Assembly: GCA_963699145.1 (NCBI GenBank) | Contig: OY969416.1 | Coordinates: forward strand, 986,226-1,050,225 | DNA from: an uncultured Verrucomicrobiae bacterium | GTDB lineage: Bacteria; Verrucomicrobiota; Verrucomicrobiia; Limisphaerales; DASXHY01 | Length of the DNA: 64,000 bases | Direction of reading: 5' to 3' | In this document: in pieces, positions 1 through 47,710 of the stretch | Position numbering within the stretch: position 1 is the stretch's first letter | Layout: each line of letters starts with the position of its first letter | Notes under the pieces: generated by a model | Databases searched by the model: none | What the model was told of the DNA's origin: nothing | Seen by the model: the letters and a program-made list of their open reading frames with translations, nothing else | Made by a program: the position numbers and the translations under genes

Positions 1-263
1 TGGCACACATCCGCAGCCTTCAGAGAATGAATGCCGAGGCATTGCGCGCCGCGAAAACGAGTGATTATGTTTTTATCAATGACGGGGTCCACAACGGCGG
101 CCTGGCGCAGTGTTACGTGAGAACGCAGTTCCAGGTGGGCACGCTGCGCGAATGCGGGTTCACGGATATCCGCGTGTTCTCCAGCGAAACGGGGAGCGAG
201 TATTTGGGACAGGACGCCTGGTTTTCCGCGCAGGACCCGTGGTTGTATTACCTATGCAAGTGA
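1..263 (+). CDS. 3' end of a gene truncated by the window edge; methyltransferase-like C-terminus (tentative)
   Basis: Frame 3 is open from the window edge to TGA 261-263, so the listed ORF 27..263 is only its Met-started tail. The tail ...YVRTQFQVGTLRECGFTDIRVFSSETG... resembles the last strands of a class I SAM methyltransferase. No catalytic motif is visible. Confidence 0.4.
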   Translation, partial: AHIRSLQRMNAEALRAAKTSDYVFINDGVHNGGLAQCYVRTQFQVGTLRECGFTDIRVFSSETGSEYLGQDAWFSAQDPWLYYLCK

Positions 264-1456
264 AGGAAAATTTGGAAGCTGGCCAGTCTGACAAAGCCGC
301 GACGGAGCATGCAAAGCTCGCAGGGTCGCCGGCGAAAGAACCGGCCACCGGCGACGCTCCGCGGGACAAGGCGTCTTCGGCGCCGCGCGCGGGGGCGCAA
401 CCGGAGCGAGGTTTCGTGGCCGTGTCGAGAAGCGAGATTGGCGCGGACCGGTGGAATGCATTCGCGGAAAAGAGCCCGTCCGCGTGGTTGTGGCATCGCT
501 ACGACCTTTCCGAAATCTGGGGTGAATGGAACAAGCGGGAAGACAAGAGCTTTGCGCTGATCAGCCGGTCCAATTCCGAGATTGTGGCGACGGTGCCGAC
601 GTTTCTGGACGGCGGCCGGATTGCGAAATGGTTTCCCTGGAATTCCCTGCATGTCCTGGGCGGACCGGCAATTGATCCGCAAGTACCGCGCAAAATGAGA
701 ACGGAGGTTTGCGAGACCATTGCGCAACACCTGGAGACGATGGCGCGCGCGAATCAGGTTCAGGAAGTGAAGTATTCACTGGCGCCCATGACGCCGAACA
801 TCCGCGGTGAAGCCTGCCCGAGGATTAATCCGTTGTGGGAGTTTGGCTGCGCCAACGCAGTGGGCCAGACGTGGGTCTGCGATCTGCGCAAGTCAAAGGA
901 CGACCTCTGGCGCGGGATTGGCAAAGGCGCCAAGAGTTCGATCAGCAAGGCGCAGAAGCTGGGGGTGCAGGTTCGCCAGGCGAATGGCAGCGCGGATTTG
1001 GATGCCTATTACCGGTTGCATTGTGAAACCTACAGTCGCACCGGCAAAGGGGCGGATCCGCGCGTGCATTTTGAAATGATTTGGAAAAATTTTGTCGACC
1101 GGAAGCTGGCCGTTGTTTTTCTGGCGGAACATGAGGGCGCGGTGGTGGGTGCGGCAAAATTGGCTGTTTATAAAAAGGGCGCCTGGTATTGGACCGGTGG
1201 CTCTAATGCGGCGGGTTTGAATGCGGGCGCGAATGCATTGATTCAATGGCATGCGATCCAGTGGATGGTGGATAACGGCGTGGAATGGTATGAAGTGGGC
1301 GAAGCGCATCTGGGCCTGAAGAATAACAAGCTGAAGCAAATCAGTGATTTCAAAAAGGATTTCGGGGGCGAGCTTTATCCGTTGTTCAAGGGAACCATCG
1401 ACACGAAAACCCGGCTGGGAAGAACGCTGGCGTTGTTAAAGGATTTTCGGGGCTAG
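254..1456 (+). CDS. FemAB-family (GNAT-fold) aminoacyl transferase, EPS/PEP-CTERM-locus type, paralog 1
   Basis: ORF 110..1456. ATG 254 is preferred because 110-253 lies inside the upstream gene. It is colinear with the next gene through the blocks RINPLWEFGC..WV.DLR.SK.DLW..GKGAKSS..KAQKLGV, SNAAGL..GA..L.QW.A.QWM..NGVEWYEVGEA and SDFK.DFGG.L.P. This matches my knowledge of the FemAB-related family found in PEP-CTERM EPS loci. Confidence 0.8.
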   Translation: MQVKENLEAGQSDKAATEHAKLAGSPAKEPATGDAPRDKASSAPRAGAQPERGFVAVSRSEIGADRWNAFAEKSPSAWLWHRYDLSEIWGEWNKREDKSFALISRSNSEIVATVPTFLDGGRIAKWFPWNSLHVLGGPAIDPQVPRKMRTEVCETIAQHLETMARANQVQEVKYSLAPMTPNIRGEACPRINPLWEFGCANAVGQTWVCDLRKSKDDLWRGIGKGAKSSISKAQKLGVQVRQANGSADLDAYYRLHCETYSRTGKGADPRVHFEMIWKNFVDRKLAVVFLAEHEGAVVGAAKLAVYKKGAWYWTGGSNAAGLNAGANALIQWHAIQWMVDNGVEWYEVGEAHLGLKNNKLKQISDFKKDFGGELYPLFKGTIDTKTRLGRTLALLKDFRG

Positions 1457-1507: not shown

Positions 1508-2689
1508 TTGGATTTTGACATGGAGACAAACGTGCACGCCACAACCGCGAGGGCTGAGAGCCCAAAAAAGGAAGCGCCCGCGCGTCCTGTGGTTGCTCTG
1601 GCAGCGCGGGTGACGCCGGAAGCTGCGCCGCAATACCGAAGCGTTTTGCGCACGGCGGTGGACAAGGCGGAATGGGATGCCTTGGTCGAAAGCAGCGATA
1701 CGGCGTGGTTTTATCACCTTTACCATTATTGCGAGATTTGGGGCGCGTGGCCGAATCGGTCGGACTTGAGCTTCGCGCTGGTGGATCCCGGTTCGTCCAA
1801 GCTGGCGGCAATCGCGCCCGCTTTCAAATTGGACGATAAATTGCAGCGTGTGCTGACGTGGAATACGATCGATGTCTTTGGCGGAATCACCTGCTCGCCG
1901 ACGCTGAATGATAGAAGCCGCCGCGCGGTGCAGGATGCGGCGGGCGGGGAGTTGCGGCGGTTGGCGCGAGAACACCGCGCGCAGGAGATTCGATTTTCCG
2001 TATCGCCGATGACGCCTTTTGTGCGCGGAGATAATTGCCCGCGCATCAATCCGCTGATGGAACTGGGCTGCGTGAACACGATGGGTTGCGCGTGGGTGGC
2101 CGACCTCAGGAATTCGAAAGAGGATCTTTGGAAAAAATTCGGCAAGGGCGCGAAGAGCTCGGTCAACAAGGCGCAAAAATTGGGCGTGACGACGCGGATG
2201 GGCCAGAGCGAACAGGATTTGGAGCGGTATTACGCCATTCACTGCGAGACGTATCGCCGCACCGGTGTCGAGCCGCAGCCACGGCATTATTTTGAGGGCA
2301 TTTGGAAACATTTTTTAGGCACCGGACGCGCGGTGATGTTTTTTGCGGATTACCAGGGCGAAACGATCGCGGCGGCGAGTTTTGTCGTTTACAAAAAAGG
2401 CGCTTATTACTGGACGGGCTGTTCGAATGCGGCCGGGTTGTCCACGGGCTCGGGAGCGTTGCTGCAATGGACGGCGATGCAATGGATGCTCGCCAATGGC
2501 GTGGAATGGTATGAAGTCGGCGAAGCGTATCCGTGGGCCAAGGAGGGAAAGTTGAAACAATTGAGTGATTTCAAAAGAGATTTTGGCGGCGACTTGTTCC
2601 CGGATTTTCGGGGGACGCTGAATACCAAAAACAAGTTGCAGAGCGCCGCGGCGGCCTTGACGCTGCTGAAGAGCGCGATCACGGGCTAA
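1508..2689 (+). CDS. FemAB-family aminoacyl transferase, paralog 2 (tandem duplicate)
   Basis: 393-aa ORF sharing the same conserved blocks as 254..1456 along its whole length (e.g. RINPLMELGCVNTMGCAWVADLRNSKEDLWKKFGKGAKSSVNKAQKLGV). The N-terminal ~50 aa are low-complexity in both copies. Confidence 0.85.
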   Translation: MDFDMETNVHATTARAESPKKEAPARPVVALAARVTPEAAPQYRSVLRTAVDKAEWDALVESSDTAWFYHLYHYCEIWGAWPNRSDLSFALVDPGSSKLAAIAPAFKLDDKLQRVLTWNTIDVFGGITCSPTLNDRSRRAVQDAAGGELRRLAREHRAQEIRFSVSPMTPFVRGDNCPRINPLMELGCVNTMGCAWVADLRNSKEDLWKKFGKGAKSSVNKAQKLGVTTRMGQSEQDLERYYAIHCETYRRTGVEPQPRHYFEGIWKHFLGTGRAVMFFADYQGETIAAASFVVYKKGAYYWTGCSNAAGLSTGSGALLQWTAMQWMLANGVEWYEVGEAYPWAKEGKLKQLSDFKRDFGGDLFPDFRGTLNTKNKLQSAAAALTLLKSAITG

Positions 2690-2755
2690 AGTTTTTGACA
2701 GACAATGAAAAATCTCGTATGTCGATGCGGACGTGCGAACGTTGATTCAATTTCC

Positions 2756-2834
2756 GGGGCTGTAGCTCAACTGGCAGAGCGGCATGCTGGCAACAGCGTG
2801 ACGATGAAGGTTCAATTCCTGTCCAGCTCCACCA
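2756..2834 (+). tRNA. tRNA-Ala(GGC)-like gene with encoded CCA but non-canonical 79-nt structure (aberrant anticodon arm)
   Basis: Acceptor stem GGGGCTG/CAGCTCC with a G3:T70 wobble, then A-CCA. D arm is GCTC-AACTGGCA-GAGC (G18G19 present) and the T loop is TTCAATT. The loop region contains TGGCAA (U33-GGC-A37-A38 of tRNA-Ala GGC). The anticodon arm reads CATGC-TGGCAACA-GCGTG, an 8-nt loop that can close to a 7-bp stem with a GCAA tetraloop. The T stem needs a bulged G, and there are 2 nt between the D and anticodon stems. Confidence 0.6.
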
Positions 2835-2859
2835 TTTCAATCGGTCCTCTATTATCCCA

Positions 2860-4464
2860 GTGACCATGTCCAATCACGATAGCAAGCCCCTGTGGCAGGG
2901 GTTCGTTGACAGCGCCGCCAAATTTCCGGATCGGCCGGCGCTGGAAGTGGGCGGGAGCACGTTCACTTACGCGCAATTATATGCGCAGGCGGCTTCGCTC
3001 GCGGCGACGTTGAAAAAACATGACGCCGGCGTTGAGCCTCCGCTGACGGCGGTGTTCGCCTATCGCACCGCGACGGCGTTTGCCGGCGTGCTCGCGGCGC
3101 TGTTTCGCGGGCATGGTTATGTGCCGCTGAATCGTACGTTTCCGGTGGAGCGTTCGAAAGGGATGCTGACGCGTTCGCAATGCCGCGCGGTGATTGTCGA
3201 TGCCCAATCCGAGTCGCAGCTCGAATCGTTGCTGGCGGATGCGGCGGATTCGTATCTGATCGTTCTTCCCGAACGCGCGGCGGTGGGCGACCTCGCCGCC
3301 CGCTGGCCGAAACATCGGTGGCTGGGCAAGGCGGATCTCGAGCCGGCGCAATCATGGAACCGCGGTGATTTTGGCTCGTGCCAATTCGCGTATCTGTTGT
3401 TCACGTCCGGAAGCACCGGAATTCCGAAGGGCGTTTTGGTGTCGCAGGCGAATGTTCAAGCTTACTTGAAATGGACGATTACGCGATACGGCATCACGGA
3501 GCAGGACCGGCACTCGCAGACGTTTGATTTTACGTTTGATTTGTCCGCGCACGATATGTTTGTGACCTGGGAAACGGGCGCGTGCCTGTGTTGCCCAAGC
3601 CAAAAACAGTTGATCAAGCCCGGCGCGTTCATCCGGGATTCGAAGATCACGATTTGGTTCTCGGTGCCCTCGACCGGCGTTTTTATGCGGCGGCTGGGGA
3701 TGTTGAAACCGGATATGTATCCCAACCTGCGCCTGACGCTGTTTTGCGGCGAGGCGTTGCCGGTGGAGACGGCGCGCGATTGGGCCAAGGCGGCTCCGAA
3801 TTCGGTGATCGAAAATATTTACGGGCCCACGGAATTAACCATCGCCTGCACGGCGTATCGCTGGAACGAGTCCACGTCGCCGGCGGAGTCGGTGAATGAA
3901 ACGGTGCCGATCGGACAGCCGTTTGACGGGATGCGAGTGCTGGTCGCGAATGAAGAATTGAAAGAAGTGGAGCCCGGGCAGGATGGCGAGTTGTTGATGA
4001 CCGGGCCGCAGCTCAGTTGCGGTTACTGGCACGACGAAGCGAAAACGAAGGCGGCTTTCGTGACGCCCCCGGGAAAAAATGAAGTGTTCTATCGGACCGG
4101 CGACCGCGTGCGCCGGCCAAAAAATGGCGAGCCGCTGGTTTACCTGGGCCGAATTGATAACCAGATTAAAATCATGGGCCATCGCGTGGAACTTGGCGAA
4201 ATCGAAGCGATGATACGGCGGTTTTCCGGCATGGACGGAGTCGTGGCGCTGGGATGGCCGCTTAACGCGGGTGGCGCGGATGGCGTGGTGGCCTTCGTGG
4301 AGACCGAGACTTTGGACTCGGCGGCGCTGGCCGAAAATTTAAAAACCAAGCTCCCGCCCTACATGGTGCCGCGCGCGTTTCATGCGCTGCGTTCGCTTCC
4401 CTTGAACGCGAATGGCAAATATGATCGCAAGGCACTGACGGAAATTTTGAAGAGCAACGCATGA
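2860..4464 (+). CDS. Stand-alone amino-acid adenylating enzyme (DltA-like / free-standing NRPS A domain)
   Basis: Adenylate-forming core motifs occur in order: LLFTSGSTGIPKGV, FDFTFDLSAHDMF (Asp consistent with an alpha-amino substrate), NIYGPTE, YRTGD, GRIDNQIKIMGHRVELGEIE, LPPYMVPR and NANGKYDRKAL. Start is GTG 2860 or ATG 2866. Confidence 0.9.
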   Translation: MTMSNHDSKPLWQGFVDSAAKFPDRPALEVGGSTFTYAQLYAQAASLAATLKKHDAGVEPPLTAVFAYRTATAFAGVLAALFRGHGYVPLNRTFPVERSKGMLTRSQCRAVIVDAQSESQLESLLADAADSYLIVLPERAAVGDLAARWPKHRWLGKADLEPAQSWNRGDFGSCQFAYLLFTSGSTGIPKGVLVSQANVQAYLKWTITRYGITEQDRHSQTFDFTFDLSAHDMFVTWETGACLCCPSQKQLIKPGAFIRDSKITIWFSVPSTGVFMRRLGMLKPDMYPNLRLTLFCGEALPVETARDWAKAAPNSVIENIYGPTELTIACTAYRWNESTSPAESVNETVPIGQPFDGMRVLVANEELKEVEPGQDGELLMTGPQLSCGYWHDEAKTKAAFVTPPGKNEVFYRTGDRVRRPKNGEPLVYLGRIDNQIKIMGHRVELGEIEAMIRRFSGMDGVVALGWPLNAGGADGVVAFVETETLDSAALAENLKTKLPPYMVPRAFHALRSLPLNANGKYDRKALTEILKSNA

Positions 4465-5027
4465 GTATGATCACGGCCGAAAATATAAAAGAATTTCTCC
4501 TGAAGAAATTCGAACCGGTCCTGCGCGACCAGGGCATGGGGTTGGACAAGGTGACGGACGATTTTGATTTCTTCGCCGAGGGAATCGTGGATTCCGTGGG
4601 CGTTTTGAATTTGATCAGTGACGTCGAGAAGACATTCAACGTGAAGCTCGACATGGAGCAAATGGATGCCGAGCAGATGACCATTGTCGGGCCGTTTTGC
4701 CGCTACGCGGCCGAACACAGCCAGCCGGCGGGAGCGAATGGGAGCTCGGCGAACGGGCACGGTTTGAGTTTGGAAGCGGTCCAGTCCGATGTGCGCAATT
4801 TTATCCGGCAGAATTATTCCATTGCCGCCGATGACCGGGATTTCACCGATGATGTGCATCTTTATAATGCGGGATATATCGATACGATGGGCGCCGGCAC
4901 TTTGAAAACGTTCGTGGAATCGAAGTATGCGATTCAAGTGACGCCGACCGATCTGGCCGCGCAGCCGATGAACACGGTTCGCGAGTTGTCGGCGTTTGTG
5001 GTCAAGCGCCGCAAGGGTGAGCTTTAA
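4461..5027 (+). CDS. Tandem (di-domain) DltC/ACP-like carrier protein
   Basis: ATGA overlap with the upstream stop (4461-4464). The first half has GIVDSVGVLNLI, a Ser phosphopantetheine site in DltC-like context. The second half repeats the context as GYIDTMGAGTL, with Thr in place of Ser. Confidence 0.8.
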   Translation: MSMITAENIKEFLLKKFEPVLRDQGMGLDKVTDDFDFFAEGIVDSVGVLNLISDVEKTFNVKLDMEQMDAEQMTIVGPFCRYAAEHSQPAGANGSSANGHGLSLEAVQSDVRNFIRQNYSIAADDRDFTDDVHLYNAGYIDTMGAGTLKTFVESKYAIQVTPTDLAAQPMNTVRELSAFVVKRRKGEL

Positions 5028-5057: not shown

Positions 5058-5793
5058 ATGAACGGCTGGAATGGACTTCTGGCGTGTGCAGTTTGTCTGA
5101 CGGTTGGAGTTGTCTTCGGAATTGGATTTGCGCTGGCGCGGCCGGGGTTGCTGCGGCGGGTCGCGAAAAAGTTGGGATTGCCGGACGGAAACCAGCGATG
5201 GTTTTATGAGCAGACCGTCGCCTTTCATCGGAGAATGGATGACTGCGTTCCCGACCAGGCCGTTCTTTTCATTGGCGACAGTTTTATCCAGGGCCTCTGC
5301 GTGACGGAGGTGGCTGCGAAGTCCATCAATTACGGGATCGGCGGCGATACGACCGAGGGCTTGCTGGCGCGGTTGCCGCACTACCCATCGCTGAACCGGG
5401 CCCGCGCGGTCGTGGTGAGCGTGGGAGAAAACGATTTGCGCAAAGGCCGCACGCCGGCGGATATCAACCTGAGTTACGGGCGGATTTTGGCCCGATTACC
5501 CGAAAAAAGTTTCCGTGTTTTTCTGTTCCCTGACGCCTTGCACAAAAGCAACGGCCAGCCCGTTGAACGATGCGGCTCTGAGTTTGAATCCCATCGTTCG
5601 ACAACTCTGCGCGTCGCGTCCGAACTGTCATTTTGTGGATTTGAATGAAGCGTTGTGCGGGAGCGACGGTTTTCTGCCGGCTCAATATGCGGAATCCGAC
5701 GGGGCGCATCTGAACGCGCGCGGCAATCGTGTGTGCATTGAAAAATTGAGAAAGCATTTGGAGAAAACGATTCCGAATTTAGGAACCGGTTGA
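5058..5793 (+). pseudogene. Membrane-anchored SGNH/GDSL hydrolase (DltD-like position) interrupted by a +1 frameshift
   Basis: ORF 5058..5648 carries an N-terminal TM helix plus block I FIGDSFIQG, block II GIGGDTT and block III VGENDL. The block V DGAHLN lies in ORF 5515..5793, one frame over. The second frame is open only from 5473, and the sensible join is at the A6 run 5503-5508 (..LARLPEK|VSVFFCSLTP..). Confidence 0.7.
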
Positions 5794-6151: not shown

Positions 6152-6910
6152 GTGAAAGATCGGTTAAAAAATTGGCTGCATAAAACTCTTGGCGATTTTG
6201 TTCCGTATCAAATGGCCGTCGGCGGCTATCGGTATTTTCTCGCGGGGCGTGAAAATCCCCATCCGCCGGAATCCTTTCTGCATTTTGGGAAAAACGTCAG
6301 GATAGAGGGTAACTCGGCGATCACGGCTCCGGAACGGCTTTATCTCGGTGACAATACAAGCTTGTCCCAGAGCGTGCAAATCAATGCCGTGGGCGGCTGC
6401 CATATCGGCCGGGCCTGCCAGATCGCGACGGAGGCCATGATCCTCACGGTGGATCACCAATACAGCGAAGGGGAAGCGCTTCCGTATGATCGCGTGCGGT
6501 TGGTGAAGCCGGTGGTGATAGAGGATTACGTCTGGATTGGCGCTCGCGCGTTGATCGCGCCGGGCGTGCGCATCGGTGAGGGGGCCATTATCGGCATGGG
6601 CGCGGTCGTGCTTCAGGATATCCCGCCACTGGCGATCGCGGCCGGGAATCCGGCCCAGGTGTTGACGTACCGCTCGAAGGCTGAGTTTGATCGGGCGAAA
6701 AGCGCGGGTGAAGAGATCGATCCTTATAAAGAAGTGCCGTTGTTAAAAGTCCCGGCGATCACCAAACGGAAGTTCAAAGCGGAATTGGCGGCCTTTGGCT
6801 TCGATGTGTCCAATGGCCAGGAGTACTTTTGTTACGATAAGCGTCAGAAATTGAGCCAGCGTCTCGTTTCCGTTAAAGGTCCGGCCGCTCCGGGAAAAAC
6901 AGGCCCCTAG
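6152..6910 (+). CDS. Hexapeptide-repeat (LbH) sugar O-acetyltransferase
   Basis: The C-terminal half is classic left-handed beta-helix text: VWIGARALIAPGVRIGEGAIIGMGAVVLQDIPPLAIAAGNPAQV. GTG start at 6152. Confidence 0.85.
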   Translation: MKDRLKNWLHKTLGDFVPYQMAVGGYRYFLAGRENPHPPESFLHFGKNVRIEGNSAITAPERLYLGDNTSLSQSVQINAVGGCHIGRACQIATEAMILTVDHQYSEGEALPYDRVRLVKPVVIEDYVWIGARALIAPGVRIGEGAIIGMGAVVLQDIPPLAIAAGNPAQVLTYRSKAEFDRAKSAGEEIDPYKEVPLLKVPAITKRKFKAELAAFGFDVSNGQEYFCYDKRQKLSQRLVSVKGPAAPGKTGP

Positions 6911-7056: not shown

Positions 7057-10000
7057 GTGAATGTGCATTGTCGTACCGTCGTAAAATATTCATTAACAAC
7101 TATTTTTGCCGCGTTCGTTTTCCTCATCGGTTTATCGGTGAATAGCCGCGCTGCCGATTTGGTGGTCAGCAATAATGCGATCATTAACATCTTCGGCGAT
7201 TCGCAATTTACTGATAGCACTGCTCCCAGCACTGGGTTTCGGTTTCCTGATTTTCTGGAATCCTATTTTCAATTGAATTATCCGACCTCCCACATTCACG
7301 TGTATAACATCAGCCGATCGGGGGGGACGATGGATGACCGACTGACGAATAGCGTGCAGAAAAACGGCTTGGGATTGTGGGGATATCAATTCAACAACTT
7401 TCAGCACATCGGAATTTCGGAGTCGACGGAGAATGGCTCGCTGACCAGTAATCAAATGTACCTGGCGCAGAGCAATCTTTTTATGGCTCCGGCGTTGATG
7501 AGTGATGGAGGTCCAAATTTAGTGGCCCATAGTGGATGGGCGGCAAATCATCCGGTTCAGTGGATTGGGCTGGGCCAGATTCCCGGAGGCGCGTTGGGTG
7601 ATTTGGGCGCACAGGCGGTCAATGACGGAGGCACCAACGCCGGGTGGACATTGGGAGTTCGCGGAGTAGATGATTGGCATTGTCTCTTGCAACCGGAAAT
7701 CAACGATTACGTCAACAATGGAGGTTTATCCGCCGGATGGTTTAAAGGAGGGCATCCCGGCGCGGGCATGGAACTGGCGATGGCGTTTGTCTTTTTGAGA
7801 CAAATCACCACGGACACGAATATCTCGACGGCCGCGGTGGATTGGAACAGCGCGACTGCGGTGAGCACCAATCATTGCGTCATTTCCTCGGTCAACCGGA
7901 ATGGAAATGTGCTGACGTTCAATCGCCTCGATGACCGGCTGCCGATGGCGTGGGATATCAATCCGTTGATGGGCATTACGAACGATTGCATGCAGGCGTT
8001 CGTGTTGGATCCAACCTTTGCGGACATGTTCAAGTTCACCATCCGGGTGGCCAATCTCCCGGCCGGACAATATGCGGTGCTTATCGATGGACAATTGGCC
8101 GGCGTGGTTGCGGATACGGTTCTTTCCAGCGCGAACGGGTGGAATATGTTTACGAACATCAGCGGCCCGTATTGGGCGCAGCGCACGGAAGTGTTGGGAC
8201 GCATCCGCGACAAGGAGCACGTGGATCGATATACGCGTGTTCCCGGCAGTGCGGGAGATCAGCAGGGAATGGTCAGCTATGGGTCCTATGCCAATGCGTA
8301 TTGGAGCACCAACGGCCGTGGCGATGCGTTGATCAATCTTCTCTCGAGCCGGGTGGCGAACGTGATGGCGCTGGACGCGCTCACGGCGCAGGCCGCGCAG
8401 CCGACGAATCACACGTTCACCATCATGCCGTTCGCGCCGACGGCGATCGTCAAAGCGTCAGCGTTGGTTAACGCGCTGAATGTGCCGGTCATTCTCGACG
8501 GCTCGGCCAGCGTCAAGGCGACGAATTATTATTGGGAACAAGTCAGTCCCACGCTGCCGCAACTGGATATGATTGGCCAGGGCACGGCCAAGCCGATGTT
8601 GATCTCGGTGACCAATGCCGGCACTTACACCTTCCGCCTGACGGTGGATGACGGGCAAACCTTGAGTTCGAACCAGGTGACCTTGACCTTTGTGCCGCCG
8701 GCCGGCCGAACGATTTTCGTGGACGGCCAGCTGGCGGCGAATTGCCTGAACAATAACTATTCGATCGCGAATCGCAACGCCAGTGGCTCGGATGGCAACG
8801 CTTACACGACCATTCAAGCGGCCGCCAACGCGACCAGGCCGGGCGATGTGGTCTATATTCGCGGCGGGCTTTATACGAACGCGCCGGCCACGGCGAATCA
8901 GAATCTGGTGATGTTGACGGTTTCCGGAACGGCCACGGCGCCGATTCGATACGAGAATTATAATGGCGAACACGTGACTCTGGCGGGGTGGGGCTTCTCC
9001 GATGTCGATACGAACGGCGACGGCTTTGCCGACGGGCCTACCTATCCGGCGTGGCGGCAGACTTTGTTCTTCGTTCCCTATGGAATCGATTATATCCAGG
9101 TCAAAGGCCTCGAACTGACGAACTCGCAACAGACGGGGTTAAACGTTGAAGGCCGCTTCTGCTTCGCGCAGGAATGCAGCTCCCATGACAATTGGACAGC
9201 CGGCGCAGCCATCACGCGCGCCCGGCTCGGGACGAACACGATTTGCGGCACGGTTTTCCGCTGGATGGAGGCTTATCGGAATCGTCATTTCGATGGACTT
9301 TGCTTTGAGTTGGAGGATCAACAAACCTTTGGTTTCATGTCGGATTGCGCGATTGTGGATTCGGTTTCTTATCGAAATGGTTACCAGCCGGACGGCCGCG
9401 AAGTCATGCCGATCGGTGGCGATCCGCAAGGTGGCGGCAATTCGGATGGATTGGGAGCGACGAAGTTTTTTGCCGACGACGCCAGCTTTTCTCCTCAATA
9501 TGGCGTGCGCAACTGGGGCACAAACCTTTTCATTATTCGCAATATCTTGTTCAATAACTGTGATGACGGCTGCGATATTTCTTGTGCGGCATCTCTGGTG
9601 GAAGATAACCGCTCTCTGTTTAACGGCCCTACCGGCACCATGGGCTACAAAATCTTTCGCCCGACACAGAACATGATTTATCGTGGCAATGTCGCCTACG
9701 GGAACATGGGGCGTGGATTTGAGATGCGAATCGACACGAACGCCTACATACAGGTCTACAACAACACGTCACTGAAAAACCAGGAGCATGGGTTTTACAT
9801 CGCGGGCACCGATGCCCGGGGGACAAATAATGTGGCCGCTTACAATGGCGGCCCGGACTGGCCGCTGACTCAATCTCCCAATTGGGCCGCTGATGGCGGC
9901 AACGCGACCGCCGGAATGTCGGGAAACCCGATGCTGCTGAACACAAATGTGTCTCTCTCGAGTGCTTTTGTGCCGACCTGGACGGTGCGCCAAAAGCACG

Positions 10001-29289: not shown

Positions 29290-30255
29290 ATGAATTCGCC
29301 AACGAGCCACTTGAATCCAGCCCCGTCCTCAGTTGACTCTCATTCGCCGGCGGCGGGGAATGGTTTCGTGCCGTCGTGGCGGCAGTTCAGGGGGTTGATT
29401 ATTTTTGCCGTGGTGCTGAGCGCGGTGTTTTGCCGGCCGTTGCTGGGGTTGCTGGAGTTCGCGCCGCACAAGGAGTTGTATTCGCACATTTTGTTGATTC
29501 CCTTCATCAGCGGCTATCTCATCTGGACGAAACGCCGGGAAGCGGTGCCGGTATCGCGGCCCAATCGCGCGCTGGCGGTGTTGCCTTTCCTGGCGGGCGT
29601 GGCGGTGCTGGGGCTGTATCGGTTCGGCCGGGGACGCGGTTGGGCCTTTGAAGACGCGGATTACCTGGCGGTGATGACGCTGGCGTATCTATGTTTCCTG
29701 TTGAGCGGCGCGTTTATTTTCGTGCAGCGCAACTATCTGAAATCGATCACTTTTCCGATTGCCTTCCTGATTTTCTGCGTGCCGTTCCCGACATTTTTGC
29801 AGGATGGACTGGAAACATTTTTCCAGCGTGGCTCCGCGCACGTGGCGTATGCGATGCTCTCGGTGTCAGGGATGCCCGTGTTGAAAACGGGAACGAACCT
29901 GCTTTTGCCTGCTTTTGTGATGGACGTGGCGCCGGAGTGCAGCGGGATACATTCGAGCCTGGTGCTGTTCATCACCAGCCTGGTGGCCGCGTATATGTTT
30001 CTCGAAACGCCTGTCCGGCGCTGGATTTTCGTGTTGAGCATCGTTCCGTTGGCGCTGTTGCGCAATGGATTCCGGGTGTACACGCTGGGAGAGCTGGGCG
30101 TTCATTTTTTCCCGAACATTCTCAAGTCCTGGTTTCATCACCATGGCGGGCCAATATTTTTCCTGTTGTCACTCGTGCCGCTATTTCTTTTATTGGTATA
30201 CCTGATGAAAGGTGAAGCGCGCAAACGGGCAGCACTGGCCAATCGAACCAAATGA
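29290..30255 (+). CDS. Exosortase (XrtA-like, EpsH family) integral membrane transpeptidase
   Basis: Multi-TM protein with the exosortase triad contexts VAPECSGIHSSLVLF (Cys), LLRNGFRVYTL (Arg) and WFHHHGGPIFF (His). Confidence 0.85.
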   Translation: MNSPTSHLNPAPSSVDSHSPAAGNGFVPSWRQFRGLIIFAVVLSAVFCRPLLGLLEFAPHKELYSHILLIPFISGYLIWTKRREAVPVSRPNRALAVLPFLAGVAVLGLYRFGRGRGWAFEDADYLAVMTLAYLCFLLSGAFIFVQRNYLKSITFPIAFLIFCVPFPTFLQDGLETFFQRGSAHVAYAMLSVSGMPVLKTGTNLLLPAFVMDVAPECSGIHSSLVLFITSLVAAYMFLETPVRRWIFVLSIVPLALLRNGFRVYTLGELGVHFFPNILKSWFHHHGGPIFFLLSLVPLFLLLVYLMKGEARKRAALANRTK

Positions 30256-34649: not shown

Positions 34650-36755
34650 GTGACAAGCGGCACATTTCTCGTTTTTGGCAGCGCGATCGTCAGCGGCATT
34701 TTGGCGCTTTCGGTGATTGTGCGGCGCGACCGGTCGCTGGCGCATTGGGCGTTCTCGGCCGGCATGCTGGTGTTTGCGGCGGCGAATAGCGTGTACGGTT
34801 TCGAGTTGGGCTCAACCGATTCGGAAAAAATCCTCAATTGGCAAAGCGCGCACTGGCTGGCGCTCGCGTTCATTCCCGGCCCGTGGCTGTTGTTCAGCCT
34901 CACTTATTCGCGCGGGAATTACCGGGAGTTTCTGAAACGATGGAGCTTCGCGCTCACCCTCGCGTTTTTGGCGCCACCAGCCCTCGCGGCGGTTTGTTGG
35001 GATTTCACGACGGCCAGCATCCATCAGGAAAACCATCATTGGTTGATGCGGTTGGGCGCGCCGGGCATTGTCCTGAATCTGCTGGTGTTGTTGTCCGCGC
35101 TCGTGGTGTTGATGAATCTCGAGCGCACCTACCGGGCCGCGGTGGGCACGATGCGCTGGCGCATCAAGTTCATGGTGCTGGGACTCGGTGTGATCTTCGC
35201 CGCGCAGGCTTACACATGCAGCCAGATCCTGCTGTTTCGGTTGGTCGATCTTTGGTGGCCCATCGTCAATTCCGGCGCGGTTTTCCTGGGCGGGTTGCTC
35301 ATCGTCCGTTCGCTGTTGCGCGAGGGAAATTTCGCGACCGACGTTTTCCCGTCGCACTCGGTGTTGCAGAATTCCATCACCGTGGTGGTCGCGGGAGTGT
35401 ACCTGTTGATCGTCGGCGCGCTCGCGCGGTTGATCGCGTTTTTTGGCGGCAACGCTTCCTTTACCATCAAGGCCGTCGTCATCCTGGTCGGCCTCGTGAT
35501 GCTCACGCTGGTGTTGTTGTCGGACCGCGTGCGATTGCGCACGCGGCGTTTCATCAGCCGGCATTTTCAACGGCCGTTTTACGATTATCGCGATGTCTGG
35601 CGCCAATTCACGCAGGCCACGGCGCGGCGCGTGGAGCGGCGGGAGTTGTGCGTGGAAATCGTCAAATTCATCTCCCAAATTTTCCAGGCATTGTCCGTGA
35701 CGGTTTGGCTCATTGAAGAAGGCCAGGGCCAGCTCAGCCTGGTGGCGTCCACGTCGCTGACCGAGGAGCGCGCGCGGGAGTTGGAACTGGACGCCGCGGA
35801 AACCGCCCAAATCATGGCCGTTCTGAGCGCGCAGGTGGATCCGGTCGACCTCGACGCCTCGGCGGAGAAATGGGCGGCGACACTGCGACGGTTGCAACCG
35901 GATGATTTTCACAAGGGCGGCAATCGCATCTGCGTGCCGCTCAATGCCGGCGGTGATTTGCTCGGTGTGATGATGCTCGGCGATCGCGTGAGCGGCGAAT
36001 TATTCTCTTTGCAGGATTTGGATTTGCTCAAATCGATCGGCGACCAGATCGCGGCGAATTTGTTAAACATCAAATTTTCGCAGCGCCTCTCGCAGGCGAA
36101 ACAACTGGAAGCCTTCCAGGCCATGTCGGCGTTCTTTGTTCACGATTTGAAGAACACCGCGTCGACGCTCTCATTGATGCTCCAGAACCTGCCGATTCAT
36201 TTCAACGACCCGCAATTTCGCGAGGACGCGTTGCGCGGCATCGGCAAAACTGTCACGCATATCAACGACCTCATCAAACGGCTGAGCATGTTGCGCGAGG
36301 AGTTATCCATCAAACCGGTGGAAGCGGATTTCAACGCCGCGGTAAGCGAAGCGCTCAAATGCCTCGACACGACGCCGACGGTGGAATTGCAAAAGGAATT
36401 GCGGCCGCTGCCGAAAGTGCGAATCGACCTCGCGCAATTTCAAAATGTGGTGGTCAATCTCGCCCTCAACGCGCGCGACGCGGTGAACGCGCGCGGAAAA
36501 ATTCGCGTGGAAACGGCGCAGCAAAACGGCTGGGTGGTGTTGACCGTGACCGACAGCGGCTGCGGCATGAATCCCGAGTTCATGCAGCGCTCGCTTTTCC
36601 GCCCGTTTCAAACCACGAAGAAACAAGGGATCGGAATCGGGATGTTTCAGTGCAAGATGATTGTCGAAGCGCACCACGGGAAGATTGAAGTGCAGAGCGA
36701 ATTGAACAAGGGCACCACCTTCCGCATCCTGTTACCCGCGCTGGGAAAAAATTAA
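34650..36755 (+). CDS. prsK: PEP-CTERM-system sensor histidine kinase
   Basis: About 300 aa of TM helices, a GAF-like middle, the H-box FFVHDLKNTAS, an N-box LNARDA and a G-box TDSGCGM. Adjacent to the sigma-54 activator. Confidence 0.85.
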   Translation: MTSGTFLVFGSAIVSGILALSVIVRRDRSLAHWAFSAGMLVFAAANSVYGFELGSTDSEKILNWQSAHWLALAFIPGPWLLFSLTYSRGNYREFLKRWSFALTLAFLAPPALAAVCWDFTTASIHQENHHWLMRLGAPGIVLNLLVLLSALVVLMNLERTYRAAVGTMRWRIKFMVLGLGVIFAAQAYTCSQILLFRLVDLWWPIVNSGAVFLGGLLIVRSLLREGNFATDVFPSHSVLQNSITVVVAGVYLLIVGALARLIAFFGGNASFTIKAVVILVGLVMLTLVLLSDRVRLRTRRFISRHFQRPFYDYRDVWRQFTQATARRVERRELCVEIVKFISQIFQALSVTVWLIEEGQGQLSLVASTSLTEERARELELDAAETAQIMAVLSAQVDPVDLDASAEKWAATLRRLQPDDFHKGGNRICVPLNAGGDLLGVMMLGDRVSGELFSLQDLDLLKSIGDQIAANLLNIKFSQRLSQAKQLEAFQAMSAFFVHDLKNTASTLSLMLQNLPIHFNDPQFREDALRGIGKTVTHINDLIKRLSMLREELSIKPVEADFNAAVSEALKCLDTTPTVELQKELRPLPKVRIDLAQFQNVVVNLALNARDAVNARGKIRVETAQQNGWVVLTVTDSGCGMNPEFMQRSLFRPFQTTKKQGIGIGMFQCKMIVEAHHGKIEVQSELNKGTTFRILLPALGKN

Positions 36756-38105
36756 ATGAAACCACGACTGCTGATTGTTGACGACGACGAGGAGATACGC
36801 ACCCAGATGAAGTGGGGGTTGACGCAGGATTACGAAATTTTCCTGGCGGAAGACCGGCCCACCGCGTTGGAGATGCTTTCCGACCACCGGCCGCAGGTGG
36901 TGTTGCTGGACCTGGGCCTGCCGCCCCGCCCCGCCGAACCGGTGGAAGGCCTGGCGGCGCTTTCGGAAATCATCAGCCGCGATCACCTTGTGAAAGTGAT
37001 CATCATCAGCGGCCAGGGCGAACGCGATAACGCGCTGCAGGCCATCGGCGCCGGCGCGTACGATTTTCTGCCGAAACCGGCGGATCTCGAAGTGCTGAAG
37101 CTGCTGCTTAAGCGCGCATTTCATGTGGCGTCGCTCGAGCGCGAATATCGCGAGATGCAGCAACTGCAGGGTGAGACGTTCGAAGGGATGCTGGGCACCA
37201 GCTCGCAAATGCAGCAGGTGTTCAACACGATTCGGAAGGTGGCCACGTCGGATGCGCCCGTGCTGGTGCTGGGAGAAAGCGGCACCGGCAAGGAAATGGT
37301 GGCGCAGGCGATTCATCGGCAAAGCTCGCGGAAAGACGGGCCGTTTATCGCGATCAATTGCAGTGCGATTCCGGAAACGCTGCTCGAAAGCGAATTGTTC
37401 GGGCACGAAAAAGGTTCCTTCACCGGCGCGCATGTGCAACGCAAAGGCCGCGTGGAGAGCGCCAGCGGCGGGACGCTGTTCCTGGATGAAATCGGCGAAT
37501 TGCCCGCGTTGCTGCAAGTGAAATTGTTGCGGTTTCTTCAGGAACAATGCATCGAGCGCGTCGGTGGCCGGCAGCCAATTGCGGTGGATACGCGGGTCGT
37601 GGCGGCGACGAACGTGGATTTGAAAAAAGCGATTCTTGAAAGCCGGTTTCGGGAAGATTTGTTCTATCGCCTGGCGGTCGTGGTGGTGAACCTGCCGTCA
37701 TTGCGCGAGCGCGAAACCGACGTCCGCCTGCTCGCCCAGGAGTTTCTGCGCCGCTCCGCCGCCAAGATCGGCAAGACCGGTTTGACCTTCGATCAGGAAG
37801 CGTTGCGCGCGTTGAAGGATTACGGCTGGCCCGGCAACGTGCGCGAGTTGGATAACCGCGTGCGCCGCGCCGTCATCATGGCCGACGGCAAACGGTTAAC
37901 GGCGGCGGACCTTGAATTGGGAGATATCTCCGAACGGCCTCATGCGGCGAATCTCAAGGAAGCGCGCGAAGCGGTGGAGCGTGAGATGATCCAAAAGGCG
38001 CTGCGCAAGCATGGCAATAAAATCGCCCCCGCCGCCGCCGACCTCGGTATCAGCCGGCCCACACTCTACGAATTGATGGATAAACTCGGGTTGAAGCGCG
38101 ACTGA
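36756..38105 (+). CDS. prsR: Sigma-54-dependent response regulator (NtrC family), PEP-CTERM-box regulator
   Basis: Receiver (LLIVDDDEEIR...VLLDLGLPP), AAA+ sigma-54 interaction domain (GESGTGKE, ESELFGHEKGSFTGA = GAFTGA variant) and a C-terminal Fis-type HTH (AAADLGISRPTLYELM). Confidence 0.9.
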   Translation: MKPRLLIVDDDEEIRTQMKWGLTQDYEIFLAEDRPTALEMLSDHRPQVVLLDLGLPPRPAEPVEGLAALSEIISRDHLVKVIIISGQGERDNALQAIGAGAYDFLPKPADLEVLKLLLKRAFHVASLEREYREMQQLQGETFEGMLGTSSQMQQVFNTIRKVATSDAPVLVLGESGTGKEMVAQAIHRQSSRKDGPFIAINCSAIPETLLESELFGHEKGSFTGAHVQRKGRVESASGGTLFLDEIGELPALLQVKLLRFLQEQCIERVGGRQPIAVDTRVVAATNVDLKKAILESRFREDLFYRLAVVVVNLPSLRERETDVRLLAQEFLRRSAAKIGKTGLTFDQEALRALKDYGWPGNVRELDNRVRRAVIMADGKRLTAADLELGDISERPHAANLKEAREAVEREMIQKALRKHGNKIAPAAADLGISRPTLYELMDKLGLKRD

Positions 38106-47593: not shown

Positions 47594-47606
47594 AACGTGC
47601 TAATTA

Positions 47607-47707
47607 TTTTTCAAAAGAATTTTCCGAAAAGGTGAGGCAAACCTGCGGGTTTGCCACGACATCCCGGCAGGGATGTCGCCACCCTTTCGAAAATTTCTTT
47701 TGAAAAA
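47607..47707. repeat. 101-bp compound palindromic element (two internal hairpins inside a long outer inverted repeat)
   Basis: The outer arm tttttcaaaagaattttccgaaaaggtg pairs with caccctttcgaaaatttcttttgaaaaa. Internal hairpins are ggcaaacc-tgcg-ggtttgcc and cgacatccc-ggc-agggatgtcg. It fills the gap between AAA+ genes B and A. Confidence 0.9.
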
Positions 47708-47710
47708 CAT

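Follow-up and report, generated by a model that had tools for sequence, protein, structure and literature searches.

The 64,000-nucleotide stretch of verrucomicrobial DNA analysed here (the window) encodes, directly behind the gene for a FemAB-like transferase, a 79-nt RNA. On balance we favour reading it as a tRNA-Ala derivative that no longer decodes and is dedicated to carrying alanine for the FemX-like transferase or transferases encoded immediately upstream. This reading is built on the structure and conservation of the element, on the way it is linked to the FemAB-like gene, and on the enzyme, which has a Fem-like fold and catalytic motif. It would entail that the RNA is processed, charged, excluded from EF-Tu and used as a donor towards an acceptor of the same pathway. 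We found no published description of such an RNA in the literature.

Results

A tRNA-Ala-like element follows a FemAB-like gene

The Rfam covariance model RF00005, run with Infernal, calls positions 2756-2831 of the window a tRNA at a depressed score of 39.4 bits (E=8.2e-5; gathering score 29), and this is the sole Rfam match within the 64 kb. ARAGORN called zero tRNAs over the same 64 kb, and neither ARAGORN nor Rfam found a second tRNA there. A canonical phage tRNA-Ala(GGC) with the identical first 25 bases scores 59.5 bits with RF00005, about 20 bits above the element; the canonical comparators are ordinary phage tRNA-Ala genes, picked from viral contigs by a 5'-half pattern. The element, its parts and the spacer before it are as follows.

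2690..2755, + strand: 66-nt spacer from the FemAB-2 stop to the RNA, without consensus promoter or terminator
2756..2834, + strand: tRNA-Ala-like RNA, 79 nt with encoded CCA (RF00005 match; six-locus identity)
2756..2762, + strand: acceptor stem, 5' strand, pairing with 2824-2830; G3 (2758):U70 (2828)
2765..2780, + strand: D arm, GCUC-AACUGGCA-GAGC, with G18G19 at 2773-2774
2781..2782, + strand: two bases (GG) between the D and anticodon stems, in place of the canonical single base 26
2783..2800, + strand: anticodon-arm equivalent, CAUGC-UGGCAACA-GCGUG, a 5-bp stem with an 8-nt loop; predicted GCAA tetraloop at 2790-2793
2801..2805, + strand: variable loop ACGAU, with U48 at 2805
2806..2823, + strand: T arm, GAAGG-UUCAAUU-CCU(G)UC; the purine at 2821 is bulged (between positions 63 and 64)
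2831..2834, + strand: discriminator A73 (invariant) and encoded CCA

A preliminary description of this DNA had placed an acceptor stem with G3:U70, an encoded A-CCA, a normal D arm and a normal T loop at exactly 2756-2834 on the + strand, and all of these hold. It had also proposed that the 8-nt loop zips into a 7-bp stem capped by a GCAA tetraloop. RNAfold agrees: the window element folds as a cloverleaf with its anticodon arm zipped to 7 bp under the tetraloop, and the extra U:A and G:C pairs inside the UGGCAACA loop have P about 1.00 in all six variants of the element that we compared (the window, L001 with its duplicate L008, L002, L003, L009 and L010). The 8-nt loop is invariant in the six copies, the canonical 7-nt loop (Y32-U33-NNN-R37-N38) is absent, and the arm is predicted to be a closed helix with no usable anticodon loop. 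By z-score (-1.45) the fold of the single sequence does not stand out, so that the case for the element rests on the covariance-model match and on conservation, not on folding energy.

Two further oddities listed in that description, a bulged G in the T stem and two nucleotides between the D and anticodon stems, recur in six of six copies, the latter as GG or AG. The T-stem bulge, which Infernal scores as an insertion in every copy, is a G in the window element and an A in each of the rest; it lies between 63 and 64, in a stem that includes G49-C65, A50-U64 and A51-U63. In most variants some other structure is thermodynamically favoured over this bulged stem; among the competitors is a pairing with the variable loop, which has the minimum free energy in several. 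We judged this alternative pairing of T arm and variable loop less likely, because in L010 the change of U48 to C accompanies a change of A15 to G and not a change of the bulged base.

AlaRS recognises G3:U70 and A73 and does not read the anticodon. All seven pairs of the acceptor stem (GGGGCUG/CAGCUCC) are invariant in the six sequences, with G:U retained at pair 3; the invariant positions thus include G1:C72, G2:C71, G3:U70 and A73, along with G18G19 and the UUCAA of the T loop, bases expected to make tertiary contacts of the L-shape. To judge by sequence, A73 with G3:U70 constitutes the AlaRS signature, and charging by this enzyme is predicted. The 3' end reads CCA in four of the six copies (window, L003, L002 and L010), CCG in L001 and AAA in L009.

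With respect to position, the preliminary description had put the element 66 nt after the second FemAB paralog and 25 nt before a DltA-like ligase gene. The first distance stands, the FemAB-2 stop lying at 2689. The second is correct for a GTG at 2860, but comparison with L004 makes ATG 2866, 31 nt beyond the end of the RNA, the likelier start of the ligase. A consensus scan of 2400-3100 revealed no sigma-70-like or terminator-like site, and the window spacer has ATGAAAAATCTCG and TTCAATTTCC in common with the spacer of L003.

The upstream enzymes resemble aminoacyl-tRNA-dependent transferases

The genes of the neighbourhood that bear on the analysis are listed here.

254..1456, + strand: FemAB-like transferase paralog 1, 400 aa from ATG 254 (Pfam matches)
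1520..2689, + strand: FemAB-like transferase paralog 2, 389 aa; the RNA follows it directly (Pfam, profile and model)
2866..4464, + strand: stand-alone NRPS-type amino-acid adenylation enzyme, DltA-like (TIGR01733, 327 bits, cutoff 317.4)
4461..5027, + strand: two-domain carrier protein; N-terminal domain DltC-like with VDS, C-terminal domain ACP-like with IDT (no Ser)
5058..5793, + strand: SGNH/GDSL hydrolase-like gene with a +1 frameshift in the A6 run 5503-5508 (tblastn against the intact L003 ortholog)
6152..6910, + strand: hexapeptide-repeat (LbH) acyltransferase (WcaF/LpxA-type matches)
29290-30255, strand not given: XrtC-like exosortase (PEP-CTERM/exosortase context)
34650-36755, strand not given: PrsK (same context)
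36756-38105, strand not given: PrsR (same context)

The exosortase, PrsK and PrsR bear out the PEP-CTERM setting that had been assigned to the locus. Paralog 1 is identical to P0009 and 47% identical to paralog 2, and its Pfam matches to Acetyltransf_6 (56.8 bits) and FemAB (35.9 bits; cutoff 24) each lie above cutoff; paralog 2 matches FemAB at 45.4 bits (cutoff 24) and Acetyltransf_6 at 58.3 bits. Against NCBIfam TIGR03019 (FemAB family XrtA/PEP-CTERM system-associated) the paralogs score 45.4 and 42.3 bits, below the cutoff of 260, and by these scores they belong to a FemAB-like subfamily other than TIGR03019.

The family profile matches FemX structures at E=2.4e-8, with the motif D-F-K-K-D-F aligned to V-F-K-H-V-F of FemX, in which F-K is Phe304-Lys305; Lys305 of FemX has a catalytic role (PMC12945691). 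The corresponding F351 and K352 are nearly invariant among 11 homologs. When the AlphaFold model of paralog 2 (pLDDT 81) was compared by Foldseek, ranks 1-8 were FemX or FemA (E down to 6.7e-16; target-normalised TM 0.56-0.71), and structural ranks 1-20 were all aminoacyl-tRNA-dependent transferases, namely FemX, FemA, Sbb17/Sba18 and MprF. The model predicts a double-GNAT enzyme with a FemX/FemA-like fold, and the sequence retains the catalytic Phe-Lys motif. From the fold and the adjoining tRNA-like gene we infer that this member of the PF13480/FemAB subfamily uses aminoacyl-tRNA, although the locus also encodes a carrier protein that could, when loaded with an amino acid, be the donor instead.

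The adenylation enzyme has LgrA (2e-100) and DltA (1e-57) as its best solved relatives, and its FDLS motif retains the Asp that binds the alpha-amino group. The LbH acyltransferase has a counterpart in L001 and L003. A conserved large protein was considered as a further part of the locus and dropped, since the 1110-aa protein of the window and the 920-aa protein of L001 are without BLAST similarity.

The element is conserved with the FemAB-like gene

In all six loci the element shares the strand of the FemAB-like gene and begins 15-278 nt beyond its stop, and it was present in every retrievable locus with a FemAB homolog 51-59% identical (five independent metagenomic loci besides the window, in polysaccharide gene clusters of uncultured bacteria), so that the RNA first described from the window alone is syntenic in relatives. 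The upstream partner is constant. The DltA-like ligase, which the preliminary description had placed on the other side, is not: the gene after the RNA encodes an adenylation-domain enzyme in the window, L003, L009 and L010, an ACP in L001 and a flippase in L002. In L001 the ACP gene is followed by a methyltransferase and then by a homolog of the class II SerRS-like amino acid:carrier-protein ligases (PDB 3mey, E=1.9e-20); in L002 no activating enzyme is found within 2.3 kb downstream.

Between loci the element is 85.5-98.7% identical, compared with 60-75% for the FemAB coding sequence and 37-63% for the 40-nt flanks. This higher identity argues that the element is kept by purifying selection. 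RF00005 scores 38.1-42 bits in four of the other loci; in L010 the match listed for the clan is tmRNA (RF00023) at 26 bits, against a threshold of 47, and not RF00005.

Covariation is limited. The anticodon-stem pair that closes the loop is C:G, but U:A in L001 and L010, the third anticodon-stem pair varies among copies (U:G, U:A or C:G), and the Levitt pair A15:U48 (A15 at 2770) becomes G15:C48 in L010 only. The proportion of paired cells is 99.3%, compared with 37-50% for slid controls. One compensatory anticodon-stem pair and the 15:48 Levitt switch support a folded L-shape, on comparative grounds that are thin in that there are six distinct sequences, most pairs are invariant, and the extra anticodon-arm pairs and the T stem lie outside their reach.

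The spacer between the FemAB stop and the element is only 15 nt in L001 and 22 nt in L010, which points to co-transcription with FemAB in these loci. The spacer of L002 is 278 nt and holds terminator-like hairpins and a TTGACA box.

No element was found on the short contigs of the closest relatives, L004 and L012 (FemAB-2 81% and 80% identical), in which the next gene, that of the ligase, begins within 1-2 nt of the FemAB stop. Its absence there suggests that the RNA is dispensable, relocated or replaceable by ordinary Ala-tRNA. Of the larger clade of ~350-aa FemAB homologs (about 42% identity), three loci were sampled and none showed the RNA. A pattern of loop plus T arm gave one match in genome contigs, inside an ORF and without tRNA signal, where about one is expected by chance; the pattern of the loops only retrieved just L008 from metagenome contigs and nothing from viral contigs. 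The contig collections that were scanned evidently lack the window's genome and the other loci, and the counts therefore carry no inference about rarity. Separately, the gene map of P0066 (FemAB, a 184-nt gap, ACP, methyltransferase) suggests another copy.

Discussion

According to the model that we favour, the element would be transcribed together with the FemAB-like gene; RNase P and 3'-end processing would release it, and CCA would be added to copies that do not encode it. Housekeeping AlaRS would then load alanine by way of G3:U70 and A73. Two features may exclude the product from translation, namely the closed 7-bp anticodon arm with its GNRA tetraloop, and the purine bulge of the T stem, which falls within the pairs 49-65, 50-64 and 51-63 that set the affinity for EF-Tu. 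The FemAB-like enzyme or enzymes would move the alanine onto an amine acceptor of the exopolysaccharide pathway, the likely candidates being an amino sugar or, as in the action of PacB on PacH, an aminoacyl group on the neighbouring carrier protein.

Staphylococci have non-proteogenic tRNA-Gly species (NP1-3) for FmhB, FemA and FemB, with T-stem pairs that are weak for EF-Tu (PMC7826273; PMC4052509), and such tRNAs have so far been detected solely in S. aureus and S. epidermidis (PMC7826273). As is thought of these tRNAs, the element is proposed to be an extra species reserved for Fem-family transferases; it too would be charged by a housekeeping synthetase and is changed in the T-stem pairs that govern EF-Tu affinity. 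Its A51-U63 is the staphylococcal weak pair (PMC7826273), and the bulge may affect EF-Tu binding. However, the staphylococcal tRNAs have a normal 7-nt loop and can decode, whereas the 8-nt loop of the element is predicted to be closed; their EF-Tu binding is lowered through the identity of the pairs A49-U65 and A51-U63, and they have G18G19 replaced and the T loop altered, whereas the element has a bulged purine and keeps G18G19 and UUC; and they carry Gly in Firmicutes for peptidoglycan, whereas the element would carry Ala in Verrucomicrobiota, probably for an exopolysaccharide. A further difference is location: to our knowledge the staphylococcal species are found in tRNA clusters and not beside fem genes, whereas the element directly follows the transferase gene, as part of a polysaccharide operon. 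If the element belongs to the staphylococcal class at all, it would act by different structural means.

FemX of Weissella viridescens is Ala-specific, and the acceptor arm alone suffices for it, with G2-C71 and G1-C72 as determinants (PMC2655667). Both pairs are invariant in the element, and the window enzyme shares the fold and Phe-Lys motif of this FemX. On the other hand, the Weissella enzyme uses ordinary cellular tRNA-Ala and acts on UDP-MurNAc-pentapeptide, and the window enzyme is only about 15-17% identical to it.

The tRNA-like domain of tmRNA has a G3:U70 acceptor stem, is alanylated by AlaRS and lacks an anticodon; the molecule as a whole runs to about 350 nt, contains pseudoknots and an mRNA-like reading frame, and acts together with SmpB and EF-Tu at the ribosome. 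The element likewise combines a G3:U70 acceptor stem with the lack of a usable anticodon, and the L010 copy has the tmRNA model as its best clan match. Unlike tmRNA it has 79 nt and full equivalents of the D and anticodon arms, and it scores far under the 47-bit threshold.

FemX-like enzymes are known beyond peptidoglycan: PacB transfers Ala from Ala-tRNA onto a peptide anchored on the carrier protein PacH (PMC4052509), and Orf11 uses Gly-tRNA to aminoacylate an amino sugar (PMC12945691). The window enzyme would fall beside these; the structures of the Orf11-type enzymes Sbb17 and Sba18 are among its top fold matches, and like those clusters the window locus combines a Fem-like enzyme, an adenylation enzyme and a carrier protein. 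The PacB and Orf11 clusters differ in that they belong to actinomycete antibiotic pathways and are not reported to have a tRNA of their own; the terms 'tRNA gene', 'tRNA-like' and 'dedicated' do not occur in a 2026 review.

An explanation that needs no carrier is that the element acts in cis, as a tRNA-like 'punctuation' at which RNase P and 3' processing make the FemAB message independent, in stability or translation, of the genes that follow, while the RNA set free has no function itself. Its place within an operon would suit such a role, as would the very short upstream spacers of L001 (15 nt) and L010 (22 nt), the lack of a promoter or terminator around the window element, and its absence from close relatives whose flanking genes are intact, as expected of a modulatory element. 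However, a mimic of acceptor and T arm suffices for RNase P, which leaves the invariant G3:U70, A73, D loop and UGGCAACA and the Levitt covariation unexplained. Moreover, the element trails FemAB whatever comes downstream, be it an adenylation enzyme, an ACP or a flippase, and the long L002 gap, with its terminator-like hairpins and TTGACA box, means that it need not be a processing site in that locus. We therefore consider it improbable that cis processing is its function.

We regard as similarly improbable that the element is a regulatory or structural RNA that donates no amino acid, whether bound to the FemAB-like enzyme as its cofactor or scaffold, or serving as a charging-state sensor or decoy for alanine or AlaRS status. 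GNRA tetraloops and bulged purines are typical motifs of contact with protein or RNA, and here they are invariant or nearly so. There is also a precedent in tRNAOther of Bacillus cereus, a tRNA-like pseudo-tRNA with a non-translational role that alters cell-envelope properties (PMC3399842), although tRNAOther flanks a genomic island, seems to act on gene expression, and has neither Ala identity nor a link to a Fem-type enzyme. Against a regulatory role, the flanks showed no motif for a partner (a tetraloop receptor or a T-box-like leader, for example) and are poorly conserved (37-63%), and since the neighbouring enzyme ranks structurally among consumers of aminoacyl-tRNA, donation would be the more economical role.

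It is also conceivable, and in our view quite unlikely, that the RNA is charged by an enzyme of the locus, the DltA-like enzyme or, in L001, the SerRS-derived ligase, possibly with an amino acid other than alanine, such that RNA and carrier protein are alternative acceptors. An activating enzyme is encoded just downstream in five of the six loci, directly after the RNA in four, and these enzymes come from two unrelated families (A-domain and class II SerRS-like). However, loading of phosphopantetheinyl carrier proteins is known of both families, and each of the enzymes has a carrier encoded at its side; the invariant G3:U70 and A73 are precisely the signature of AlaRS; and L002 has no activating enzyme within the 2.3 kb downstream.

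An 8-nt anticodon loop typifies the classic frameshift suppressors, and the SGNH gene of the window requires a +1 shift for readthrough, which could suggest a working decoder, a +1 frameshift or quadruplet-reading tRNA-Ala for translating a gene of the locus. We reject this as very improbable: the shift occurs at an A6 homopolymer (GAA AAA A|GU, 5503-5508) unrelated to a GCC-type codon, the SGNH ortholog of L003 is intact despite the same RNA, and no other split genes were seen adjoining the element. The loop itself has no base 5' of U33, and folding predicts that it zips completely; moreover, a T-stem bulge and an extra base at position 26 are foreign to suppressors. Finally, a decaying tRNA-Ala pseudogene or assembly artefact, which might account for the rejection by ARAGORN, for an Rfam score ~20 bits under that of a canonical tRNA-Ala(GGC) that shares its 5' half, and for the homopolymer frameshift nearby in the same assembly, is hardly credible and effectively refuted by the comparative data, in which the same three deviations (8-nt loop, T-stem bulge and 2-nt 26 region) recur in five independent assemblies, excluding the indel error considered in the preliminary description, and the element is 85-99% identical where the flanks are 37-63%, its internal changes being compensatory.

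Returning to the dedicated alanyl carrier, we advance tentatively, as the less probable part of our proposal, that the locus encodes a self-contained, ribosome-independent peptide module with two kinds of carrier. An A-domain enzyme or, interchangeably, a SerRS-derived ligase would load the carrier protein with an amino acid, one or two FemX-like enzymes would add Ala from their private RNA, and the hexapeptide-repeat acyltransferase would graft the peptide onto the exopolysaccharide. Such an RNA would be the first aminoacyl carrier RNA to have departed wholly from the genetic code and to serve a biosynthetic gene cluster exclusively.

If the element is the carrier that we propose, the principle of the dedicated tRNA would reach a Gram-negative, verrucomicrobial lineage and the decoration of polysaccharides. 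It would provide the case of a tRNA descendant that is seemingly barred from the ribosome by its structure and has retained its synthetase identity. As an RNA charged in nature by AlaRS and possibly unseen by EF-Tu, it could aid the engineering of orthogonal aminoacyl donors. The amino acid:carrier-protein ligases would gain a concrete pathway context. For the family of the neighbouring enzyme, it would be the first direct genomic hint that the FemAB-like or 'CelD-BcsL' (PF13480) enzymes of exopolysaccharide loci use aminoacyl-tRNA.

Results

A tRNA-Ala-like RNA within an operon

The element at 2756-2834 (+) reads GGGGCUG-UA-GCUC-AACUGGCA-GAGC-GG-CAUGC-UGGCAACA-GCGUG-ACGAU-GAAGG-UUCAAUU-CCU(G)UC-CAGCUCC-A-CCA. 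The Rfam tRNA model (RF00005) aligns end to end with 2756-2831 at 39.4 bits (E=8.2e-5), above its gathering score of 29, and the element is the sole Rfam family detected in the 64-kb window; ARAGORN called no tRNA anywhere in the window. All of the intact parts ascribed to the RNA in the preliminary description are present in the sequence, as are the three deviations that it listed:

within 2756-2834 (+): acceptor stem of 7 bp with G3:U70
within 2756-2834 (+): normal D arm with G18G19
within 2756-2834 (+): normal T loop
3' end of 2756-2834 (+): A73 and encoded CCA
within 2756-2834 (+): deviation, two bases in place of the single base 26
within 2756-2834 (+): deviation, 8-nt loop UGGCAACA in the anticodon arm
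2821 (+): deviation, bulged G in the 3' strand of the T stem

RNAfold zips the loop, as had been proposed, into two more pairs (U:A and G:C) capped by a GCAA tetraloop, and the predicted probability of this 7-bp/GCAA form is ~1.00 in all six variants. The fold z-score against shuffles is only -1.45, and energy alone would therefore not single out the sequence.

Encoded on the coding strand, the RNA begins 66 nt downstream of the stop codon of the second of two FemAB-like genes and ends 31 nt upstream of the start codon (ATG, 2866) of a free-standing NRPS-type adenylation enzyme.

254-1456 (+): FemAB-1, FemAB-like gene upstream of the element
1520-2689 (+): FemAB-2, FemAB-like gene directly upstream of the element

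The adenylation enzyme is followed by a two-domain carrier protein, an SGNH hydrolase gene, a hexapeptide-repeat acyltransferase and glycosyltransferases, and then by an AsnB-like amidotransferase, PAPS synthesis genes and UDP-sugar dehydrogenase and epimerase genes. Farther downstream an XrtC-like exosortase, PrsK and PrsR are encoded, so that the earlier assignment of an exosortase/PEP-CTERM polysaccharide locus is correct. Both FemAB paralogs fall outside the curated PEP-CTERM FemAB equivalog (~45 bits, cutoff 260). Among named proteins, those most similar to the window's CysNC protein come from Verrucomicrobiota/Pedosphaera (73-75% identity); the XrtC type is consistent with this phylum too, to which the window probably belongs.

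The 3' end of a further gene (1-264, ...PWLYYLCK*) overlaps the ATG of FemAB-1. The SGNH/GDSL hydrolase gene (5058-5793) carries a +1 frameshift inside GAAAAAAG, in an A6 run at 5503-5508. Sequencing error in the homopolymer, phase variation or slippage at this site, and recent pseudogene formation are all conceivable causes; the ortholog in the metagenomic locus L003 (4030-4773) is intact. Downstream of the polysaccharide locus, 45284-54372 (-) holds a row of three large genes for ClpB/AAA_2-type ATPases (769, 1117 and 1103 aa) bearing STAND-like N-terminal NTPase signatures.

Conservation and covariation of the RNA

Searches with FemAB-2 returned 16 homologs at E<=1e-10 (single sequence) and 71 at E<=1e-20 (profile), and the retrieved contigs encoding such homologs were compared. 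In every retrievable locus with a FemAB 51-59% identical, the RNA recurs in the same orientation immediately 3' of the FemAB stop; this is the syntenic element that the preliminary description had said should be sought.

Element copies in the comparison loci: position, spacer after the FemAB stop, next gene
L001 (duplicate L008): 7429-7507; 15 nt; small ACP, then methyltransferase, then 398-aa homolog of SerRS-derived amino acid:carrier-protein ligases
L002: 3424-3502; 278 nt; flippase
L003: 1727-1805; 68 nt; A-domain enzyme, as in the window
L009: 2321-2399; 74 nt; A-domain enzyme
L010: 3985-4063; 22 nt; A-domain enzyme

RF00005 scores 38-42 bits in four of the five loci, the L010 copy being listed under the related tmRNA model; ARAGORN made no call of the element in the four loci scanned (L001-L004). 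The copies are 85.5-98.7% identical in pairwise comparison, against 60-75% for the 3'-terminal 900 nt of FemAB, and with 40-nt flanks only 37-63% identical, conservation drops sharply at G1 and A73. The loop UGGCAACA is invariant, a purine is bulged from the T stem in every copy (G in the window, A elsewhere), and the D and anticodon stems are two bases apart throughout. The encoded CCA had served as an argument for the RNA; it holds for the window and not in general, since only four of the six copies have it, a pattern compatible with a CCA-adding enzyme, and that argument falls.

Across the six distinct sequences, 99.3% of cells of the proposed cloverleaf are standard pairs, compared with 37-50% in controls in which the 3' partners were slid. 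The sequences vary little. In two pairs of the anticodon stem both bases are replaced, and one of these changes, C:G to U:A at the loop-closing pair in L001 and L010, fixes the end of the 5-bp anticodon stem. Outside the helices, L010 changes A15 to G together with U48 to C, the classical Levitt tertiary pair; this argues against the competing T-arm fold, favoured by RNAfold in some variants, in which base 48 would pair with the bulged purine. No variation is seen in the acceptor, D and T stems or in the two extra pairs of the anticodon arm, so that covariation neither supports nor contradicts these.

The 278-nt spacer of L002 contains, on the opposite strand, an Acido-Lenti-1 RNA (RF01687; 3210-3255 (-), 51.7 bits vs 37), with repeats of the hairpin-like GAGCCGCGGAGCGGCGA and a TTGACA box on its flanks. 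ATGAAAAATCTCG and TTCAATTTCC are common to the upstream spacers of the window (2703-2715, 2746-2755) and L003 (1676-1688, 1717-1726) only, and may serve in processing or regulation or simply reflect closer relatedness. In six phage contigs the tRNA-Ala 5' half GGGGCTGTAGCTCANNTGGCAGAGC occurs without mismatch, and ARAGORN calls no tRNA in the sequence that follows it (L014 3341-3365, L018 1900-1924, L019 1879-1903, L021 84-108, L022 6407-6431, L023 6156-6180); introns, splitting or truncation of tRNA-Ala genes may be the reason.

Loci without the RNA

The closest relatives of the window locus, on two short contigs (L004, 3.3 kb; L012, 1.8 kb) with FemAB-2 81% and 80% identical, cleanly lack the ~170-nt spacer-RNA-spacer block. 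Their adenylation gene starts 1-2 nt after the FemAB stop (L004 1939-1946, TAA-AT-ATG; L012 1435-1441, TAA-T-ATG), and BLAST found no trace of the element on either contig. The RNA has therefore been lost or moved recently with both flanking genes intact and is not indispensable in cis. It is also absent from the three loci sampled of a clade of ~350-aa homologs (~42% identity). In related loci, this RNA-less clade included, the gene before FemAB is always a class I SAM methyltransferase, and methyltransferase-FemAB is therefore the older conserved pair.

The FemAB-like enzyme

The FemAB-like proteins score above the Pfam cutoffs for FemAB and Acetyltransf_6, and a profile of 11 family members matches FemX structures at E=2.4e-8. 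The profile has a nearly invariant D-F-K-K-D-F, opposite which FemX(Wv) has V-F-K-H-V-F with Phe304-Lys305; Lys305 is the sole reactive residue of the FemX active site (PMC12945691). Structure matches of an AlphaFold model (pLDDT 81, pTM 0.78) are led by FemX and FemA (ranks 1-8), followed by the aminoacyl-tRNA-dependent Sbb17/Sba18 (ranks 9-11), solved with streptothrisamine, an amino-sugar intermediate that PMC12945691 names, and MprF-type aminoacyl-phosphatidylglycerol synthases (ranks 12-20). Acetyl-CoA-dependent tandem GNATs come below rank 20, and this order points to aminoacyl-tRNA as the probable donor of the modelled enzyme.

Discussion

AlaRS recognises G3:U70 with A73 and ignores the anticodon. 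FemX(Wv) requires the acceptor arm only, with G2-C71 and G1-C72 as determinants (PMC2655667). All four features are invariant across the six sequences; the requirements for alanylation and Fem-type use are thus kept, and those for decoding are lost. The purine bulge separates positions 63 and 64 and falls among the three T-stem pairs by which affinity for EF-Tu is tuned, the pairs that are altered in the staphylococcal non-proteogenic tRNA-Gly species (PMC7826273, PMC4052509). For these reasons we favour, with moderate confidence, the proposal of the preliminary description that the adjacent transferase(s) have in this RNA an alanyl carrier of their own that does not decode. Its processing, charging, exclusion from EF-Tu and use as a donor are steps that we infer: AlaRS would alanylate it via G3:U70 and A73, the bulge at 63/64 would keep the charged RNA off EF-Tu, and the adjacent Fem-type transferase(s) would draw alanine from it.

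An RNase P "punctuation" element would account for the position within the operon and leaves unexplained the invariance of the AlaRS identity set and of the whole anticodon-arm loop, as well as the tertiary pair; we consider it a minor possibility, and would give a regulatory or scaffold RNA about the same small chance. Charging of the RNA by a locus-encoded enzyme is unlikely, because a carrier protein is encoded next to each of the two enzyme types, adenylation enzyme and SerRS-like ligase. Quadruplet decoding is very improbable: the sole nearby frameshifted gene shifts in its A6 run, not at a GCC codon, and has an intact ortholog in L003. A pseudogene or artefact, for which we see almost no chance, is refuted by the comparative data, as the conservation of the deviant features themselves excludes decay and assembly error, including the indel errors that the preliminary description had considered.

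No account of a tRNA-like gene associated with FemAB-like genes in polysaccharide loci came up in full-text literature searches. According to a 2020 study, S. aureus and S. epidermidis were the only species in which non-proteogenic tRNAs for Fem enzymes had been detected (PMC7826273), and a term search of a 2026 review of aminoacyl-tRNA-dependent biosynthetic enzymes showed no occurrence of 'tRNA gene', 'tRNA-like' or 'dedicated'. The private alanyl carrier would follow the same logic as the staphylococcal tRNA-Gly species, but differs in structure (no anticodon loop, bulged T stem), in amino acid, phylum and pathway, and in that its gene is embedded in the operon it serves.

The constant partner of the RNA is the upstream FemAB-like gene, whereas the downstream gene differs among loci. 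In the window, L003, L009 and L010 the slot is filled by the DltA-like adenylation enzyme and its carrier protein (window 2866-5027), and in L001 by the ACP and the SerRS-like ligase homolog (7599-9907; PDB 3mey, E=1.9e-20; NF005479, E=3.7e-34, below its cutoff), a non-orthologous displacement; thus two unrelated routes of carrier-protein loading share one neighbourhood. The 188-aa carrier protein is a two-domain fusion (window 4461-5027; L003 3431-3997), to whose C-terminal half the L001 ACP (7599-7856) aligns with 56% identity in the window. This half has lost the phosphopantetheine serine (IDT in the window and IDP in L003, against IDS in L001), and the DltC-like N-terminal half keeps a VDS attachment site. 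PacB transfers alanine from Ala-tRNA onto a carrier-protein-anchored peptide (PMC4052509). By analogy, we speculate that the FemAB-like enzymes may extend an aminoacyl-S-carrier protein, and that the hexapeptide-repeat acyltransferase may, from the gene content, then move the product to the polysaccharide. The displacement in L001 gives the amino acid:carrier-protein ligases a pathway context.
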